Positions 1,734 through 56,185 of a stretch of 64,000 nucleotides of DNA are shown piece after piece. Source of the stretch: Ostreococcus lucimarinus (taxonomy: Eukaryota). The translations under genes were made by a program, and so were the position numbers. The number at the start of each line of letters is the position of its first letter. Position 1 is the first letter of the stretch. Under the pieces are notes generated by a model. It searched no databases and was not told where the DNA came from. It saw nothing but the letters and a program-made list of their open reading frames with translations. The stretch lies in assembly GCA_000092065.1 (NCBI GenBank), contig CP000589.1; one strand, written 5' to 3'.

Positions 1734-3338
1734 ATGACGAGCGGCGGAGGAAAGCGACGACGAGCGACGGCGCGCGACGCGCGAGCGCGATGGCGCGTCG
1801 CGCACCGCGCGTGGATGGTGGTGGTGGCGGCGACGGCGGCGAGCGCGGCGCGCGGACGGCGAAGGTGGAGGCGGACGCGCGACGACGCAAACGCGAGGGA
1901 CGAGACGACGTCGAACTTGACGATGTCGGACGTGTGTCTGTACTCGCCGGCGACGATCGAACGCGCGAGATCGGCGCTGCCGCGAACGGCGAGCACGTGG
2001 CGAGGGACGGTGAGCGTGGCGGTGTTGGCGGATTTGAAAACGCCCGGCGACGCGCTCGACTTGAGCGCGATGGCGAGCGAGTTGGAGGGAGACGCGGGAC
2101 GAATCGCGATCACGATGGTGGAGGCGCTACCGGAGTACGAGAATAGATTTCCAGTGAACTTTTTGCGCAACTTGGCGCGGGAGAAGTGCGTCGCGGAGCT
2201 CGGAGCGAAGTACGTGTTGGCACACGACGTCGATTTCGAAGTCTTTGTTGCGCCCGACGAGGACGCGTTTTTGAACGACGTGCGAAACGTTTTGGGGAAG
2301 CGGAGCGGCGAAAAGGTACGCCGCGCGCTGGTCGTGCCGGCGTTTCAACTTCATGCGGTGTGGTCACAACGAGTGAACGCGAAGAGAGATGCGATTCTGA
2401 ACGCGCGGCGGGTGCAAAGACAAACAAAGTCTCGCCGCAACGAAGGCAAAGACGACGACGAGTCCATCGACGCCGTCGTGGACAGTATCGCAACCAAGGG
2501 TGATGTACGACGACTAAATCCGATGTCTCTATACGAGACGCTCGTTGAAAGAGACCGAACTCGAACGGTCGACTCAAAAGCGACCGCAATAAATCTGACG
2601 CTTCCGTATTCCACGCGCGAGCGCCTCGATCGCCTCGTTCGCGAGCGTCGACTTGCGAACGGTTTCCAAATCAATTACTTTCCGATCGCGCACGCGCCGA
2701 CAAACTACACGGCATGGTTTGAGAACACCACCACTGGTGCGGACTCAACGTATCGCGTCGCGACTCCGAAGCATCCGTGGTACTACGAGCCTTACGTCAT
2801 CGTTCGCGCAGATCTTGCGTTGCCTTTCGATGAGTCTTTCGTGCAGTACGGCTTCAACAAGATTTCATTCGTTCACGAACTCGCCGCGGCGGGATTCGAC
2901 TTCCACGTTACGAAGAACGCTCACACTGTCCATACGAACACACACCCGACGCGTGCAATGGCAAACATGCAAGGACAAGACTTGGCGCGTTGTCGCGCGC
3001 ACCCTGCAGCGTCGAACGATTTTAGAATCGCTCGAGTCGGGCACTCATGCATTCCAGCTTTTTTACGCCGAATGGAGTGCGCGTACGGTTTTACCTTGGA
3101 TGACTTAGAATTCGGTGGCGTATCGAATGCGCCGCCGCCCGATGATTTGCTTTTTCGCCTACAGTCGGATGATAACATCGTCTGCTTTGGGGGATGCATC
3201 ACGGATTTAGAAGATGCGCCGCGCACGCCGGCTACCGTCACCGTGCGAGGCGGACGATTCGTCGGCGTGACGCAAGGCTCAGACGCTCGTCGGCGTAAAC
3301 GGGGCCCTTGTGAGCGCTTTGACGTAGCTTTACAGTAG
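1734..3338 (+). CDS. Glycosyltransferase family 49 (LARGE / B4GAT1-like) type II membrane protein.
   Basis: The C-terminal half matches the GT49 signature (HPWYYEPYVIVRADLALPFDESFVQYGFNKISFVHELAAAGFDFHVTKNAHTVH). An N-terminal signal anchor (MVVVAATAASAA) follows the Met at 1734. The ORF is open from 1317, but that stretch overlaps the upstream U-box promoter and is R/S low-complexity, so the start is placed at 1734 (alternative 1632). Confidence 0.6.
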   Translation: MTSGGGKRRRATARDARARWRVAHRAWMVVVAATAASAARGRRRWRRTRDDANARDETTSNLTMSDVCLYSPATIERARSALPRTASTWRGTVSVAVLADLKTPGDALDLSAMASELEGDAGRIAITMVEALPEYENRFPVNFLRNLAREKCVAELGAKYVLAHDVDFEVFVAPDEDAFLNDVRNVLGKRSGEKVRRALVVPAFQLHAVWSQRVNAKRDAILNARRVQRQTKSRRNEGKDDDESIDAVVDSIATKGDVRRLNPMSLYETLVERDRTRTVDSKATAINLTLPYSTRERLDRLVRERRLANGFQINYFPIAHAPTNYTAWFENTTTGADSTYRVATPKHPWYYEPYVIVRADLALPFDESFVQYGFNKISFVHELAAAGFDFHVTKNAHTVHTNTHPTRAMANMQGQDLARCRAHPAASNDFRIARVGHSCIPAFLRRMECAYGFTLDDLEFGGVSNAPPPDDLLFRLQSDDNIVCFGGCITDLEDAPRTPATVTVRGGRFVGVTQGSDARRRKRGPCERFDVALQ

Positions 3339-3415
3339 GAAAGTATGTTTATTGGAAAAATACAAGACGTCTTACAAAGAGTACGAGACTCGCTACAGGT
3401 CGCTATAGGTGGCTA

Positions 3416-4803
3416 TCATCGAAGGTAGATGGATGGCGAAAACGGCGCAGCCGAAGCCGCTTCGTTGTACTTCGGCCTCGTCGGCGTCGCGCACGCGCCT
3501 TCCCTCAGTCCCGTCAGAATCGGAAACTCGCTCACATCTACCCCTCGTAAAAGCTCCTCAGCTTGCTCGTACATGCTGGTGTTGGCCCGGTTCACGGTTC
3601 GCATCAAATCCAACGCGTCAACATTTTGCGCAACTCCAGTGGAATCGTCTTTCGTCTTAGTTTGCTTACCTCCCCTTCGGAACAGGTGGGAAAGACGTGT
3701 GTTACGAGTTTTTCTTGGCTTGTCCGGTGACACGAACGCTTGCAAATCCTCGATGGAGCTGATGCCTGGCATCTTTGGCATTTGAATCGAAGACGCGTCC
3801 ATACTCACGTTAGGCGGGAAGTGCGGCAGCTTGATCTTCGTCACGTTGGATAAACCCTCCACAGCGGCGATAGCGACGCCAGATGGGAGCATCGATTTAC
3901 CCGGCGATGTGATGCCGATACCTTGATACGCGCCTTCGGGTGTCGAAGTGGCTTCCAACACTGGTGACGTCGTCACCAACGGCGTGTTCGTCGTCGTGCC
4001 TCCAAAGTCTTCAAAAATCTCGCTAATCTTGAACGGGCTCTCACCCGCGTATCTCGTCGGCGTGGGCACGTCCGAGTACGGCGACGCGAAAATGTTGGCG
4101 CTAATGCCACCAGGCGGATTCGAAGCCTCACCTTCTGACGCATCAAACATGTTCGCGCGAATGTCCGAAATCGGCTCTGAGACGCGTCGCCTCGCCCCAG
4201 AGCGCGACGCTCTCGAGGACTTCTTTCGCTTGCTCATATCGACACCACCACGCTGAGACGGTGTCATGTAGTACTGCGGTATGTTGATACGCGACGAATT
4301 CAATGCCAAAGCCTTGCGCGTGTTATTCGACTTCTTGATCGAGCCAGACTTCCCCGACTTGGAATGCTCGCGCTGCTCCGCCGCCGCGAGCGCGGGGAAC
4401 CCTTGATTCAACGCTTGGTCCACCTTGCGCTTCAACGTGGAGTTCCAGTGATTTTTAATCGCGTTATCGGTGCGTCCTTTGAAAGACTTGGCGATTTCCG
4501 CCCAGCGATTGCCGTACTGTGCGTGCGCGATGATCAACTGACGGTCCTCGTCTGCGCTCCACTCCTCGCGCTTGATCTCCGGGTCGAGGTGGTTGTACCA
4601 TCTCTCGCGGCATTGCTTCCCGATTCTCCCAGGAAGCTCGCCCGCGATTTTGGACCATCGCTTCGCCCCGAGTTCGGTGACGAGCTCGATGATTCGCGCG
4701 TCCTCCTCCGCGGTCCACGGCCCTTTCACCAGTTCGGGGTTGAGCACTTTTTGCCACCTGTGCAAGCACTGCACGTCGGTGCGGCTATCGCTAAAGTACA
4801 CCG
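3416..4803 (-). CDS. MYB3R: R1R2R3-MYB (MYB3R/c-Myb-like) transcription factor, terminal exon: end of R1, then R2, R3 and the C-terminal region.
   Basis: [35 protein letters not shown]...[32 protein letters not shown]...[18 protein letters not shown] matches the c-Myb/MYB3R R2R3 repeats. The track 'start' is a GTG (Val) sitting 2 nt after a CGCGCAG acceptor, so this is an internal exon boundary. Confidence 0.8.
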
Positions 4804-4985
4804 CTGCGCGCGTCGAGAAAACACAAACTCATCGTCAGTAACCGTGAAACACGCGAGCAATCACACAAACACCGTCCTCGTCGTCCGAACGAGTGCGAAA
4901 GAGCACGACATCAACCGCCGCGCTCGAGCGTCCCGACGCTCGTTCACGCGCGCTTCGCCGAGGGATCTCGCGGTCGCTCGCGTAC

Positions 4986-5043
4986 CAATCTTCTTCCAAT
5001 TCCTCCCCCCGTACACCGCCACCGCGCCGCGCAACAATTCATC
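4986..5043 (-). CDS. MYB3R: MYB3R micro-exon (58 nt) encoding DELLRGAVAVYGGRNWKKI(A), the middle of Myb repeat R1.
   Basis: Donor ATT G|GTACGC at 4985 and acceptor CGTTCGTAG| at 5044..5046. Joining it to the 3416..4803 exon gives [22 protein letters not shown], matching plant MYB3R ([20 protein letters not shown]). Boundaries were cross-checked against track ORF 4944..5150. Confidence 0.6.
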
Positions 5044-5127
5044 CTACGAACGCAATCACCCCACGTCAGTCTCTTTCGCCGCCCTCTTTCACCGCAAACG
5101 GCGCATTCGCGTCGCGTAAATCCGCAT

Positions 5128-5157
5128 CCAAATTCAAATTCAAATTTCAAATTTTAA
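5128..5157. repeat. (AAATTC)n / (CAAATT)n AT-rich microsatellite inside MYB3R intron 1.
   Basis: ccaaattcaaattcaaatttcaaatttta on the plus strand. It is an AT island in GC-rich DNA. Confidence 0.6.
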
Positions 5158-5162
5158 CGCAC

Positions 5163-5217
5163 CTCCTCGGGTGTCCATCCTCCTTTGGCGCTTCTCCGCG
5201 TCGGTCCTCCGATCTTC
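5163..5217 (-). CDS. MYB3R: MYB3R upstream exon fragment encoding ...KGGWTPEE, the start of repeat R1. Its 5' boundary and the initiator ATG are unresolved; further exon(s) probably lie between about 5220 and 5600.
   Basis: GGA TGG ACA CCC GAG GAG|GTGCGT donor at 5162. Spliced to the micro-exon it yields KGGWTPEEDELLRGAVAVYGGRNWKKIA, the canonical W-x2-EED-x2-L R1 start. An in-frame stop upstream and no ATG imply at least one more upstream exon. Confidence 0.45.
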
Positions 5218-5715
5218 CTGCTCGCGACGCGCGCACGGCGCGAAAGTCAGTAAATCATTCTCGCGTTTCGCGCTCGTCGCGACGACGCACCCATCACCGA
5301 ACGCGCGCGGCGCGAGTCGGTCGTTCGAATGCGGTCGCGATGCGCCGGCGTCGCGACGCGTCGCTTTCTTCGCCGCTTTCCGACTTCCGGACGCGCTCGC
5401 GCGACCGCTCGATCGCGCGCCGGATTTCTTTTTCGTCTTTCGCGGCGACGGCGGCGACGGCGAGCGTCCGCGCGCGGGCTTCGTCGCGCGGCGCGCGCGG
5501 GCGACCATCTTCGTGCGCCGCGAACTGCGGGCGGCGTCGCGTCGTTCGGCTTCACTACGCGTCCCGTTTCATAAATGTTTTTAATACGCGTGTCACTGTA
5601 TGCGCAGCTCCGAGTTGTCTGATCGTGTACCACGCGCGGAGTCAACCGCGCGCCGAGTCGCCGCGCGACCGCGCGACACGGCGACGCGCGCGCGACGGCC
5701 CGGTCCGGTCCGCGC

Positions 5716-6696
5716 ATGACCGTCGAACCGTCGTCGAGCGATGGCGACGCCCGTTTGATGAAAGTCGCCGTCGACGATGACGCGCGCGAAGATGCGAAAG
5801 ATGCGACGACGCGGGACGATTCATGTCGCAGCGGCGCTTCGACGACGGACGACGCGCTCGCGGCGTTCGCGCACGACGAGCTCGATCGCGCGAAGACGAC
5901 GATCGCGCGATTACGGTTGGAGAAGCACGCGCTCGTGATGGGGAACAAGCGAGAGGGCGAGGCGAGAGCGAGGGCGGAGGTCGAGGCGAGAGCGCGCGCG
6001 GAGGCTGAGGCGAAGGCGTTGGCGGCGGAACGCGGGGCGTTGACTGAGCGTGAACGGGCGTTGCGAGCGTTCGTCGAGGATAAGAAGGCGCATGATGAAG
6101 CGTTGCGTCGGGCGAGGGAGGAGTGCGCGCGGTTGACGGTGGCCTTAGAGTCAGAACGAGCGGACATGGAGCGGGCGTTCGCGGCGAGGACGGGGGCGAT
6201 GCGCGCCGAGTGCGACGCGCGCGTGGCCAAGGCGAAGAAACAAGCGGAATCGACGATGACGGCGCGCATGGAGCGATCTGTAAAGAGAATTTTGGCGCAG
6301 AATAGGAAAATGAGCGATGAGCTTCGCGTGCAGGTGAATGAGACAGACGCGTTGCATCGGCGCTTCGCCAAGGCGAACGCCGAGGCGGAGAGCTTGCGCC
6401 GACGCGCGGCCGCGGCGGATGACGTCGAACGCGAGCGCGCGGAGCTCGGGGCGATGCGAGCGAGGGACCTACGACGAGCAGAGGAGAAAATCACGACGCT
6501 CGAGCGCGGTATCCGCGAACTCATGGAAGCGTTCGAGACGCAAAAGCTCGAGTGGGAACGGGAGACGAACGATTTGCGACGCGCCAACGATGAGGAAGTA
6601 ACGCACCTTAAACGTTCGCTGGCGTTGAAATCGCGCGAGTTGGTCAACATCAGGCGCTTAGCGAAAGAGGTAGTGTGTCATTATGAAGACTTGTAA
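5716..6696 (+). CDS. Hypothetical coiled-coil protein (326 aa).
   Basis: Long E/K/R/A/L heptad-like sequence with a varied, non-repetitive C-terminus (EWERETNDLRRANDEEVTHLKRSLALKSRELVNIRRLAKEVVCHYEDL). The antisense ORF 5247..6650 is S/A/R low complexity and is rejected. Confidence 0.4.
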   Translation: MTVEPSSSDGDARLMKVAVDDDAREDAKDATTRDDSCRSGASTTDDALAAFAHDELDRAKTTIARLRLEKHALVMGNKREGEARARAEVEARARAEAEAKALAAERGALTERERALRAFVEDKKAHDEALRRAREECARLTVALESERADMERAFAARTGAMRAECDARVAKAKKQAESTMTARMERSVKRILAQNRKMSDELRVQVNETDALHRRFAKANAEAESLRRRAAAADDVERERAELGAMRARDLRRAEEKITTLERGIRELMEAFETQKLEWERETNDLRRANDEEVTHLKRSLALKSRELVNIRRLAKEVVCHYEDL

Positions 6697-15255: not shown

Positions 15256-15861
15256 TTAGTTGTTCGTATATTGCACGTATGTATCCATTGACATGAATTC
15301 ATGTCCATTCTCGGCAGCCATCTCTTGCGTCTCGTCCCAAGGACACCCGCGCTCACGCGCGTACTTCAAACATTCCAACTCTCCATCCATGGCGGCAAGT
15401 GCGCACGTCCACTCGTTCCAGGGACATCCATTCTCGTGCGCGTACTTCAAACACTCCAATTGTCCGCTCCGGGCGGCATTCATGCACGTCCTCTCGTCCC
15501 AAGGACAGCCGTGCTCGTGCGCGTACTTCAAACATTCCAAATGTCCATTCCGGGTGGCGTAATAGCACGTCCTCCAGTCCCAAGGACACTCGCGCTCGTG
15601 CGCGTACTTCAAACACTTCAAATGCCCATTCATGGCGGCATTCGCAGACGTCCATTCGTTCCACGGAAAGTCGAGTCGCCGCGCCTCCTTCAGCTGCTCG
15701 AGATAGCCAAGTTCCGCGAGTTTTGAGCAAACTAAGCCGTCTGCATCGCGCTGCGGTCCGCGAGATACATTCTCGAGGCAAGTCTCGAGGCAATCGTGAG
15801 TCTGACTGGCCCGGCGCTTGATCAATTCGCGCAAACGCGCGTATGGGTCCTTCTTAGCCAT
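15256..15861 (-). CDS. Ankyrin-like 'GCPWDE' repeat protein (tandem ~33-aa repeats).
   Basis: Five tandem repeats of the form NGHLECLKYAHEHGCPWDERTCxxAA. The underlying DNA is a ~99-bp tandem repeat across 15300-15700. ATG at 15861. Confidence 0.6.
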   Translation of the reverse strand: MAKKDPYARLRELIKRRASQTHDCLETCLENVSRGPQRDADGLVCSKLAELGYLEQLKEARRLDFPWNEWTSANAAMNGHLKCLKYAHERECPWDWRTCYYATRNGHLECLKYAHEHGCPWDERTCMNAARSGQLECLKYAHENGCPWNEWTCALAAMDGELECLKYARERGCPWDETQEMAAENGHEFMSMDTYVQYTNN

Positions 15862-44579: not shown

Positions 44580-47500
44580 CTAGATGCGATAACGGCCTTG
44601 TGGTTGACCTGCGGCGCCGGGAAGGGCTTGCTTAGCGATGGCGGTCTCGATGATGTTCTTGACGTAGTTCTTTCCTTCCTTGACCACGCGCTCGGTGGGG
44701 CCTTCGATGAGGAGGTAGAGCTTGCGATCGCCGGGGGCGAGCGGACGCCCGGGGGCGGCGTATTGCCCTTTTGCCGTGACTGCGGCGCCGGTATGCTCCA
44801 TGATTTGCACTAACGTGTCTTTGTGAGTGACCTTGTAGCGCGCGAATTGTGGGAAGTCGTTGATCTCGAGCTCAGTCTCGAAGTGCGAGCCTGACTGCGT
44901 CGGCCCTCTGGACGTTTTTGCGTGCTGCGCGTTGAGCGCTGCGGCGAGGGCGGCGGCTTTAGCGGCACCCGCCGATGCGCCGTGCGCAAGCGCGTAGCTC
45001 TGAGCCAATGCGATCGCTTTCGTATTTTGCGCGCCTGCAGCTTGTTTTTGCGGCTGCTTCATTTTTGCAAAAACGGATTGCGCCGCAGCTTGCGCGATCT
45101 GCGCGGGCGTCAAGCCACCCTTGGCGACGAGCGCTCCTGGCGTGTGCGCAGCCTCCGCCGCCGCCGCCGCCGCCGCCGCCGCTGCTGCGGCCGCTTGTGC
45201 TGGTGCTTGAGCAGCTGCAGCTGCTTGCGCCGCGGATGCTTGCGCTGCGGCTTGACCGGACGGACCCACAGAGGCGTAGATTGGTCCTTCGTCTTCCGCA
45301 TTGCCATCGCCGAAGACTGGCTCTTCGTCACTATCGCTCTCACCATCGTCTACATCCAGGCCAGCCGCTCGAGCGGCGTCACGCTTCTGTTTGCGCAAGA
45401 GGTCTTGCTCTTCTTGGTTGAATTTGAATCCAGAACCACCGAAGCCAGAACCAGCGGCACCGACGAGACCCTCCTTGCGCTTACGAGTAAACTCATCCGC
45501 CATTGCTTGCACATCCTGCGGGACGTTTTGCTTCGACTCTTTAAGCGCCTTGACTAAGTCGGGTGCGAACTTTTCTTCGTCTTCTGAAATAAACGTTACT
45601 GCGGTCCCTTTCTGGCCGGCGCGTCCAGTACGTCCAACTCTGTGCACGTAATCCTCCAAGTGGTTAGGCGTGTCGTAGTTGATGACGAGCCTCAAATCCT
45701 TGACATCCAACCCGCGAGCGGCGACGGAGGTGGCGACGAGGATGTTACAGACGTCTGATTTGAAGTCTGAAATCGTACTTTGTCGGTCGCTTTGTTCTTT
45801 ACCGCCATGTAAGCTCAAACACGGATAACCGCTCTTGAGCAATTCCTTAAACGTCGAGTCCGCCTTGTCCTGGCTCGCGACGAAGATTATAATCTTGCCG
45901 CGCTCGTACCATTCGCCGAGTAATTCTAAGACTCGTAAAAATCGATCTTCTTCGGGACGAAGTTCCACAAGCTGCTCTATATCGGAGTTCACCACGGACT
46001 TTCCACCGATTTGGATCTCGATCGGGTTGTCCAGCGCGGCACGCGCCAACGCCTCCATCGTGTGCGGAAACGTGGCGCTAAACATCACCGTCTGGCGATC
46101 CGGACGAAGATTGGCCAGGATGCGAGTAATTTGTGGTTCAAAGCCCATATCGAACATACGGTCTGCCTCATCGAGCACCATGTAAGTTACTCTACGCAAG
46201 TTTGTAATTTTTCCCGAACCTGTCGTCAGCAAGTCAATCATGCGACCGGGCGTGCACGCGACGATTTCCGCGCCGCGTTTCAAATCGCCAATCTGCGCCG
46301 CTATACCCGAGCCACCGTACACGGACACGGCCGAAAACCCCATGGCTTTTCCGTAACGCTTGCAATCTTTACCAATCTGCGTCACCAACTCTCTCGTAGG
46401 TCCCATGATCATACCAATAGGTCCGTCGCCGGAGGCGAGGGGCTCCTGCGCGTTGATGTGGCGCAACATCGGTAAAATGTACGCTAAAGTCTTCCCGCTA
46501 CCGGTTTTCGCGACCCCGATGCAATCGCGTCCGGACATGATCACGGGAAGCGCTTGTGCCTGAATAGGCATCGGCTTTTCGAATCCAGACCGGCGAATCA
46601 GCTCATGCACGCGATTGTTCAAGCCCGCCTGCGCCCACGTCTTGATGGGTTTCGGCACCTTTTTACCTCGACACTTGATTCCGTCCAACTCCACACGAAG
46701 CTGCTTCACCTCCGCCTTGGTCATCGACGCTATTTCCTTCGCTTCGATGTAAAAGTTTTTCTTCACCGGTTCGTAATCGATCTCGTCGTGATTCACCGTC
46801 CCGAGACGTTCAGTCTTGCTCAATTTCGCGGTTTGCTTCTTTGCCCACGCTTCGTCGTCGTCGTCGTCGTCATCTACCTCAGTTTTTGCTTCGACCGCGT
46901 CTTCCGACAGAACATCCGTAGTTTTAGCTTCATCTCTTTCGGCTTCGTCTTCGGACGACTCGCCTCCGCTTGAGTCGAAGACCTCGTTCATGACTTGCGC
47001 GCGTTTGGACGTTCTTCTATTCTTCTTCACCGGCACATAATTCACCGCCGCGGTCGGGATCACTGGACGCAAAACCTCGACGACAGACTTTTTCACCCCC
47101 AAAACCAACGGTTTCGACGTCGACGCGCCGTCCGCGGAGGTGCCTCGCGCGCCAATCTTCCCCGCCGCCGCCGCCTTTTTCGCCGCCGCCGCGAACACGC
47201 TCATCAACGCGTCTTCCTCCGAAACCTCCATCGGCGTCGCTTCAGCCTTCGCCTTTGCCTCTAACTTGGCCGCTTCCTTTTCCTCGGCCTCGCGCTTAGC
47301 GCGCTCTTTCGCCTTTTCTCGCTCCTGGTCCATCGCGTCGTCGTTCGCCGCCATGAAAGCGTCGAGCGGGTCGTCGTCTTCATCCGTCGTCTCCCCCTTA
47401 CTCCTGGACCCACTCCTCCCGCGTCGTTTCGCACCCCCCGCGACCGTCGTTTTCGCCTTTTTACCCCTCTTCCCATCGTCCTCGTCCGCGTCCGCGTCCG

Positions 47501-54168: not shown

Positions 54169-55944
54169 TTACATTTGGTCGAGATAGGCGCCGTAACCGA
54201 GCTCTTCGAGCTTGCTCGCCTTGTTCAACACGACGTTCTCCATGTCGTCTTGGTACGCTAACATTTTAGAGCACACGTCGGGCTCGAACGCGGCGACGAT
54301 GCGAGCGGCGATGAGACCGGCGTTGGCGCTGTTGCCGATGGCCACCGTCGCCACGGGAACGCCTTTGGGCATTTGAACGATGGAGAGCAAGGAATCCATG
54401 CCGTCGAGATACTTGAGCGGGACTGGGACGCCGATAACGGGAAGAGGGGTCATGGCGGCGACCATGCCGGGTAAGTGCGCGGCGCCGCCGGCGCCGGCGA
54501 TGATGGCGCGCAAGCCGCGCGTGTGCGCGCTTCTCGCGTACTCGTTCATACGCTCGGGCGTTCTGTGCGCCGAAATGACGGTGACTTCGCAACCGATGCC
54601 GAAAGATTCGAGGACCTCCGCAGCGGCGCTCATCGTGGGCAAGTCACTGTCGGAACCCATGATGATGCCGACTTGAGCCGCCTTCTTCGGCGGCGTCTTG
54701 TCCCCGCTCGCGGCGCGCAAAAGCGTGTCCAGACGCTCCGTCGCCACCGCCGCGCTCGGGCCGACGACGGTGAGGTGACCCATCTTGCGCGCGAGCTTCA
54801 TGTCAGGCTTTTCGTACCAGTGAATGCTCGCACCGGGAGTCGCTAGCGCGGCGCCCATGAGACGGTGCGCCCGGCCCATGGCCTCGTCGCCGTCGCCGTC
54901 TCCCAAAATATTCTTCATCACCGCCCCGCCAACCTTGAGCGAGGTGTCACCCAAGGGCCAACCCAAAATGGCGCGCAAGTGATTTTCGTACTGCGAGCAC
55001 GCGCAGCCTTCGATGGTGTAGTGACCGCTGTTGTGCGGTCTCGGCGCGCACTCGTTGAGCAAAATCGAGCCATCCTTGAGGAGGAAGAGCTCGACGCCAA
55101 AGATCCCCGCACCCGTGAAAGACCCGATCGCTCGCTTCGCCGCCGCTTGCACCGCTTCGGCAACTTTATTCGGAATCGGCGCCGGCGTCGTCGTCGTGTC
55201 GCAAATATTGTTTTCGTGAACGGTTTCGACGACGGGGTACGCCCGCGTCTCCCCATTCTTGGCGCGCACCACCATCACCGCCAATTCCTTCTCAAACGGC
55301 ACCCACTTCTCGCAATACAACCCTTGTTCAAACCCACCCAACTTCGCCACCGCATCGGCCAAATCCGCGGCGGTCTTCGCCACCGCGTTCCCGCGCCCGT
55401 CGTACGCCAAACGCTTGGACTTTAACATGAGCGGAAACCCAAACTCGCTCGCCGCGCTCTGCAACGCGGCTTCATTCGGGCAATCCGCGTACGGCCCGAG
55501 CGGGACCCCGGCGTTCGTGAAGTGTACCTTCTGCGCATACTTATCCTGAATCGTCGCCAACGTCTCCGGCGTCGGCTGCACGTCCACGCCCGCCGCGCTC
55601 AGCTCTCGCAGCGCCTCCACGTCGATGTGTTCAATCTCCACCGTCACCACATCGCACGTCTCCGCGAACGCCTTCACCGCCGCCTTATCCCTAAAACTCC
55701 CCACCACCTGCGTCGCCGCGATCGACGCCGGCGCGCGCTCCGTCGGATCCAGCGCTTTCAACCGCACCCCCATCGGCGCCCCCGCGATTGCGAGCATGCG
55801 TCCGAGCTGTCCGCCGCCCAATATCCCCACCCGACAGTCCCGTCCGTACCCCTCGAATCCCGGTTCATCGCTATCGCGTCCGCGCGCGTTCGCGCTTTCG
55901 TCAGTCCATCGCTCGATCGCTCGCGTCGTCCCGCGTTCGCGCAT
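54169..55944 (-). CDS. ADE2: Phosphoribosylaminoimidazole carboxylase, bifunctional PurK-PurE fusion (ADE2-type; N5-CAIR synthetase plus mutase).
   Basis: N-terminal ATP-grasp ([14 protein letters not shown]...; [18 protein letters not shown]). C-terminal PurE ([42 protein letters not shown]...[29 protein letters not shown]). ATG at 55944. Confidence 0.9.
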
Positions 55945-55966
55945 TCATTCATTCATTCATTCGCTC
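55942..55966. repeat. (CATT)5-6 microsatellite overlapping the ADE2 start codon / 5' UTR.
   Basis: gcattcattcattcattcattcgctcactcattcgcc. Confidence 0.5.
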
Positions 55967-56185
55967 ACTCATTCGCCCGGTTCAAACCGACGCACCTCAC
56001 TCGAAACTTGGCCTCCCCGCTCGCGCGCGCGCGCGTCCGGCGCGTTCGCCCGCGCGCGTTCGCCCGCGCGCATCGTCGCGTCGCGCGCGGCGCGCTCGCG
56101 TCGGTCGTCGCGCGCGCCGCGGCGCCCGTCATCGCCGTCGTCGTCGTCGATGTGACGACCGCGCGGCGGGCGGCGCGATCGCCCT

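Follow-up and report, generated by a model that had tools for sequence, protein, structure and literature searches.

Known three-repeat Myb proteins and the Ostreococcus lucimarinus gene

Transcription factors with three Myb repeats include the MYB3R proteins of land plants and the c-Myb and B-Myb proteins of animals. The gene considered here is located on the minus strand of a 64-kb stretch of contig CP000589.1 from Ostreococcus lucimarinus, which was analysed as a whole and is called the window below. It is very probably a four-exon MYB3R (three-repeat, c-Myb-type) transcription factor gene whose product is 572 amino acids long. Land-plant MYB3Rs, including Arabidopsis MYB3R1/3/4/5, tobacco NtmybA1/A2/B, and Selaginella MYB3R-5, are about 55–74% identical to the algal protein over the R1R2R3 domain and have a GPTRRS.KGGWT motif before repeat R1 in common with it. 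Their expected role is G2/M transcription that depends on mitosis-specific activator (MSA) elements (PMC5405339). The three repeats of animal c-Myb and B-Myb also align end to end with those of the algal protein, and the DNA-contacting helices of R2 and R3 have the same sequence, but there is no likeness beyond the DNA-binding domain. Animal Mybs act mainly via MuvB at CHR sites (from cell cycle genes homology region), whereas plant-type MYB3Rs act at MSA sites (PMC7527812, PMC4974476).

The algal gene is itself not new. A 3R-MYB on chromosome 9 of O. lucimarinus, which we take to be the gene in the window, is listed by Feng et al. 2017, with one 3R-MYB for each algal outgroup (PMC5405339). 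The same study describes two introns of the Myb domain, A and B, as older than the split between green algae and land plants, and we infer that these are introns 2 and 3 of the present gene. The later introns C, D, and E of plants are absent from the algal gene, as already reported there (PMC5405339). GenBank also holds a record named 'predicted protein, partial' from O. lucimarinus CCE9901 (XP_001419697.1/ABO97990.1, 180 amino acids). The gene and both of its R1 junctions are already public, and what is new is the completion of the gene model: a full product of 572 amino acids instead of a partial one of 180. The completed model adds the start codon, the conserved C-terminal region, and another micro-exon, 55 nt long.

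Exons, introns, and splice signals

The minus strand was read over positions 3200..6200 of the window, along with the list of open reading frames (ORFs) of the same region. In this list the locus is represented by an ORF of 461 amino acids (3416..4801) that starts with a GTG inside repeat R1, as the original prediction had pointed out. That prediction also proposed that a 58-nt micro-exon (4986..5043) and an exon ending at 5163 rebuild R1. Splicing of the sequence, alignment with c-Myb, and a tblastn search with an orthologous protein (P0009) agree on this point, and the proposed junctions are those of XP_001419697.1. Once the four exons are joined, the coding sequence comprises 1719 nt without stops and encodes 572 amino acids.

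All exons lie on the minus strand. Exon 1 (5291..5508, 218 nt) extends from the ATG at 5508 to ..GATGG; its frame ends with ..CGCGCGTTCGGTGATGG and is followed by the donor GTGCGT. It encodes 72 residues and two bases of a Gly codon, giving a basic, Ser/Pro-rich N-terminus that ends with APRAFGD-G. Intron 1 (5218..5290, 73 nt, phase 2) opens with this GTGCGT donor; its CTGAC branch site precedes the 3' splice site by 28 nt, and its acceptor is CAG, after which G-AAG-ATC-GGA begins at 5217. Exon 2 (5163..5217, 55 nt) encodes (G)KIGGPTRRSAKGGWTPEE, corresponding to the conserved pre-R1 motif and the start of R1, and ends at 5163 in front of another GTGCGT. With this length exon 2 is also a micro-exon, so that the gene harbors two consecutive micro-exons. 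Intron 2 (5044..5162, 119 nt, phase 0) runs from a GTGCGT donor through a CTGAC branch site to a TAG acceptor. It was called intron 1 in the original prediction; the intron is real, but its number has to be changed. The microsatellite noticed inside it was found by Tandem Repeats Finder as a period-6 array at 5129..5153. Exon 3 (4986..5043, 58 nt), flanked by TTCGTAG and GTACGC, encodes DELLRGAVAVYGGRNWKKI and the first base of an Ala codon. Intron 3 (4804..4985, 182 nt, phase 1) has a GTACGC donor, a CTGAC branch site, and, just upstream of the listed ORF as had been predicted, a CGCGCAG acceptor that ends at 4804. Exon 4 (3416..4803, 1388 nt, of which 3416..3418 are the TGA stop) then begins with CG at 4803 and encodes the remainder of R1, R2, R3, and a C-terminal region of 334 residues. 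All three introns thus combine a GT[GA]CG[TC] donor with an AG acceptor, and in each a CTGAC branch site precedes the 3' splice site by 21–30 nt.

Conservation of the structure in related loci

Eight related loci were compared with the window, seven of them of Ostreococcus type (L003, L004, L006, L009, L010, L011, L012) and one of Micromonas type (L013). The gene order DnaJ, unnamed ORF, MYB3R, and glycosyltransferase 49 (GT49) is the same in the window and in the related loci. All eight give stop-free models with exons of 55 and 58 nt in the same phases as in the window, and the proteins of the compared loci are 44–88% identical to each other. The Micromonas-type locus harbors the same four-exon layout, both micro-exons included, at 44% identity over the full length; its introns are longer than those of O. 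lucimarinus. In Selaginella MYB3R-5, the positions and phases of all three introns agree with those of the window, as do the exon lengths of 55 and 58 nt, bringing to nine the number of other loci in which the R1 junctions are conserved. Because this layout is common to the marine-alga loci and to Selaginella, the two consecutive micro-exons are the ancestral structure of the gene in the green lineage and not a peculiarity of the O. lucimarinus genome.

Two further observations bear directly on the junctions. First, L004 has no intron 1, and its uninterrupted APRAFGDGKIGGPTRK matches the window junction APRAFGDG|KIGGPTRR residue for residue. Intron 1 is present in all other loci compared and in Selaginella. 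In the lineage of L004 and L005, exon 1 and exon 2 are fused with the junction kept exactly (L004 1327..1650, compared with 5218..5290 in the window), which looks like a precise loss of intron 1. Second, P0009, an orthologue of 597 amino acids with 58% identity, carries SGKIGGPTRRSAKGGWTADEDELLRRAVAHYNGKNWKKIAVFFSD without interruption. It is encoded on a contig of 1883 nt, which is considered transcript-like because the 597 amino acids fill it. When P0009 is searched against the window by tblastn, its residues 64–83, 84–102, and 101–245 match 5222..5163, 5043..4987, and 4810..4376, respectively, in consecutive order.

The first exon and the start codon

Followed upstream, the frame of exon 2 is closed by a TGA that forms part of the CTGAC branch site, with no ATG in between. 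This was anticipated by the original prediction, and it means that a further coding exon is required upstream. The missing 5' exon had been predicted between about 5220 and 5600; exon 1 at 5291..5508 falls within this interval, and position 5217 is the start of the exon whose end at 5163 had been given. The ATG at 5508 is the only in-frame ATG after the upstream stop, and 207 nt separate it from the ATG of the divergent neighbour (5716, plus strand). The donor of exon 1 (GG|GTGCGT) resembles those of the other introns and is conserved across the related loci, where the first exons are also alike: they start with M..R.RR and end with ..PR(A/P)FGDG or PLG(E/D)Y(D/E)G.

A number of points weigh against the model. 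Exon 1 is poorly conserved and fast-evolving, and the differences between close relatives at its three codon positions (12/11/19 and 24/19/31) provide a weak signal. Given this weak signal, the choice of the start codon relies on the sole in-frame ATG, on the loose M..R.RR motif, and on the 207-nt gap to the neighbour. No O. lucimarinus transcript spanning exons 1–3 was found, and a search with the N-terminal 127 residues returned distant Myb-domain fragments but no spliced N-terminal product from the same species. The match to XP_001419697.1 is at the protein level only. MSA cores (AACGG) and E2F-like octamers were dropped as regulatory support because they are not consistently conserved. Finally, a role in G2/M regulation is proposed by homology only.

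These points leave room for a gene that is right from exon 2 on and has a different 5' end, with 5291..5508 untranslated or misdelimited, or with another start. Besides its fast evolution and weak coding signature, exon 1 is of low complexity, no same-species transcript was found over it, and long open frames occur by chance in GC-rich DNA. An upstream coding exon is nevertheless needed by the closed frame of exon 2, and 207 nt alone remain between the ATG at 5508 and that of the neighbour. Conservation extends to the donor and to the ..PRAFGDG end, the sequence of L004 crosses the junction uninterrupted, and an intron matching intron 1 in place and phase is present in Selaginella. We therefore consider a different 5' end improbable and retain exon 1 as the first coding exon.

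Public records and the unspliced reading frame

Residues 9–180 of XP_001419697.1 are identical to residues 74–245 of the model (172/172, KIGGPTRR..NQG), both R1 junctions included, and the record and the window locus are the same gene. By this match the window belongs to O. lucimarinus or to a strain nearly identical to it. The first eight residues of the record (RRARVASR) correspond to the last 23 nt of intron 1 and the first base of exon 2, read as coding. The record is incomplete at both ends, with no start codon, without exon 1 (72 residues), and without the 327 C-terminal residues after NQG. The claim that the gene had been missed by the ORF track is true insofar as ORF lists are blind to introns; the gene was not overlooked, however, since this partial GenBank model exists. 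The GenBank models for O. lucimarinus (P0139) and for Micromonas commoda (P0204, 'predicted protein, partial', 172 amino acids) are alike in being partial and limited to the Myb domain.

Public copies of the gene are without exception truncated, and the other database entries concern its exon 4 part. The nearest cluster (P0001, 99% identity, 196 members), next to the one that includes XP_001419697.1, consists of 461-amino acid ORF calls in prokaryote style from marine metagenomes, and metagenome calls of the gene are generally ORFs of 443–466 amino acids without R1. Intron sequence is read through at the N-terminus of P0008, P0010, and P0012. The hundreds of metagenome copies that are GTG-start ORFs without R1 call for caution, as they are mistakable, also by automated classification, for R2R3-type Mybs. 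An MMETSP transcript product (P0129, 283 amino acids) matches the C-terminus of the gene with 2 mismatches, indicating transcription of this end of the gene. The short proteins P0123–P0125 and P0133, which belong to the same cluster, span the C-terminus only and do not reach the junctions.

It could be argued that the functional product is the unspliced 461-amino acid ORF itself (3416..4801), an R2R3-like protein without R1, and that the upstream pieces are decayed remnants. Prokaryote-style gene callers give exactly this ORF, and the metagenome cluster has as many as 196 members. Yet the ORF starts with a GTG, an unusual start codon in eukaryotes, the R1 exons are undamaged and in phase, their lengths hold across nine loci with protein identities of just 44–88%, and the transcript-like contig of P0009 has the entire R1. 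An unspliced product is thus very unlikely, and the spliced four-exon gene is used in what follows.

Myb repeats and predicted function

The spliced protein harbors three stretches of the Pfam Myb_DNA-binding family (E = 2.6e-53). Its Myb domain aligns continuously with the R1R2R3 domain of c-Myb (chain C of PDB 1H88, E = 3e-64) over residues 11–165 of the 172-residue query, that is, residues 84–238 of the model. R1 (residues 84–134, 4733..5186) is distributed over exons 2, 3, and 4 and was delimited by alignment with c-Myb R1 (PDB 1H88, 1MBE). R2 (residues 135–186, 4577..4732) and R3 (residues 187–238, 4421..4576) were delimited by Pfam and by the c-Myb alignment. The recognition helices of R2 and R3 (KQCRERW..N and NAIKNHWNS) are identical to those of c-Myb (1H88_C), base-contacting residues included. 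The top named homologues are land-plant MYB3R-1/-3/-4/-5, with 55–74% identity over the domain, and the MYB3R identity that had been proposed for the gene is supported by these homologues and by the three Pfam repeats. Assignment to another class of three-repeat Myb, SNAPc4-like or CDC5-like, can practically be set aside: the PDB search also matches SNAPC4 (3e-37) and CDC5/CEF1 (about 1e-14), but far more weakly than c-Myb (3e-64), the closest named proteins are MYB3Rs, and Selaginella MYB3R-5 agrees with the algal gene in its intron positions and in the GPTRRS.KGGWT motif. By these comparisons the protein seems closer to the MYB3R/c-Myb class than to the SNAPc4 or CDC5 classes.

By homology, R2 and R3 would bind AACNG-type (MSA/Myb-binding) sites, and the protein would control G2/M genes as do plant MYB3Rs and animal B-Myb, probably jointly with a DREAM/MuvB-like complex. 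The protein contains many S/T-P sites, SPDK among them, and on this basis is likely to be a substrate of cyclin-dependent kinases. Its C-terminal region could be aligned only with relatives of Ostreococcus and Micromonas type, in which blocks such as PFSPSxYL are conserved.

A conserved TTTGAA block in intron 2

The period-6 array in intron 2 (5129..5153; 4 copies, score 41) has the unit CAAATT on the plus strand, or GAATTT on the gene strand. It includes three tandem TTTGAA hexamers at 5133..5151, 12–25 nt after the donor of exon 2. The exact 12-mer TTTGAATTTGAA occurs only once in the window; with one mismatch it has 3 matches there, compared with 0.24 expected by chance. In 8 out of 8 Ostreococcus-type loci, TTTGAA is located 7–25 nt after the exon-2 donor, and it is in tandem in 7. 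It is the sole conserved block of intron 2 across Ostreococcus-type lineages with proteins about 60% identical. More generally, the introns hold 2–5 TTYRAA motifs per locus, against 0.3–1.0 in dinucleotide-preserving shuffles of the same introns (3–7-fold). Additional TTYRAA motifs are found in intron 3 of five loci (L004, L006, L009, L011, L012). In the Micromonas-type locus they are found in intron 3 and in the upstream region, in both orientations and at varying positions. Donor-like GTGCGT sites of the window are not in general followed by T-rich or TTTGAA sequence.

TTYRAA, most often as TTTGAA, is the CHR element bound by LIN54, whose DNA-contacting residues are conserved in the plant TSO1/CPP proteins (PMC4974476). 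O. tauri is reported to have two CPP (CXC) factors, and a CPP motif is enriched in the promoters of genes peaking at zeitgeber time 12 (ZT12) (PMC12216367). For Arabidopsis, a TSO1-MYB3R1 module has been described (cited in PMC7527812). One tentative and rather doubtful reading is that the array is a cluster of CHR-type sites through which MYB3R would be transcriptionally controlled by a LIN54/TSO1-like CXC (CPP) protein belonging to a DREAM-like complex. The varying positions and both orientations of TTYRAA in Micromonas fit a DNA element better than an RNA element. The block sits in an intron, about 350 nt downstream of the ATG; CHR elements are usually near the transcription start. An intronic splicing enhancer beside the micro-exon and a tolerated microsatellite remain alternatives. 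The gene itself is real, known, and ordinary, and the intronic TTTGAA block would be a reasonable regulatory lead.

If a CXC/CPP factor does act at intron 2, the Arabidopsis TSO1-MYB3R1 module would go back far in the green lineage, and in this alga it would sit in the first introns of a very compact gene. As a transformable alga, O. tauri would then offer a simple system for the mutual regulation of DREAM-type complexes and MYB3R; with a single MYB3R gene and a pair of CPP genes, a picoalga would be easier to study than plants.

Several other candidates were considered along with the array. A heat-shock-element reading was rejected, as the GAA/TTC spacing is unfit. Paired TTTGAA hexamers at 15608 and 42844 and a near-match at 45417 lie inside long ORFs or in a coding-like 81-nt repeat. 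The only other donor-like site with a T-rich or TTTGAA context (55995) belongs to the 5' intron of a PurK/PurE-type gene and was dismissed, as it has just a single hexamer. Retention of intron 2 would introduce an in-frame stop in some loci, but not in L009 and L012, so that this feature is not conserved. No ORF with a CXC domain was found in the 64-kb window.

Other motifs and neighbouring features

The region upstream of the gene (5509..5715) comprises the 207 bp between the ATG at 5508 and the ATG at 5716 of a plus-strand ORF of 326 amino acids (5716..6696). It presumably serves as a shared promoter and 5' untranslated region (UTR) of MYB3R and the divergent ORF. It contains an AT-rich stretch, TATTAAAAACATTTATGAAACGGG, and adjoining this stretch in the shared region is an MSA/Myb core AACGG, contained in TGAAACGGGAC (5448..5452, minus strand) and given as 60 nt upstream of the ATG at 5508. 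As a 5-mer, AACGG is common (2 per kb), and across the loci it is not conserved. Self-regulation via MSA elements has been reported for plant MYB3R genes.

Intron 1 contains TTTCGCGC, an E2F-like octamer. Intron 1 and exon 2 together carry three such octamers (TTTSSCGC or complement) in a span of less than 100 nt (minus strand, 5238..5245, 5266..5273, and 5184..5191), compared with a mean of 0.4 per kb over the window. E2F-like sites were also seen in L004, L009, L011, and L012, and not in L003, L006, L010, or L013.

At its 3' end, the gene converges with the GT49 gene. Only 77 nt (3339..3415) lie between the MYB3R stop (3416..3418) and the end of the GT49 ORF at 3338, implying that the 3' UTRs of the two genes overlap or are extremely short. 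A TGTAA is found between them at 3372..3376.

Further away in the window, whose base composition showed nothing unusual, an 81-nt unit is repeated about 4.2 times at 15330..15667 (Tandem Repeats Finder score 339; as a 162-nt unit, 402). Each 81-nt unit contains TTCAAA, and the repeat is probably a repeated protein-coding module. Finally, a short 5' intron is likely at 55906..55995 (minus strand) in the PurK/PurE-type (AIR carboxylase) gene; its signals are the donor GTGCGT, a run resembling (GAAT)n, and the branch site CTGAC. With such an intron, the long ORF (54169..55944) would likewise lack its first exon in an ORF list.

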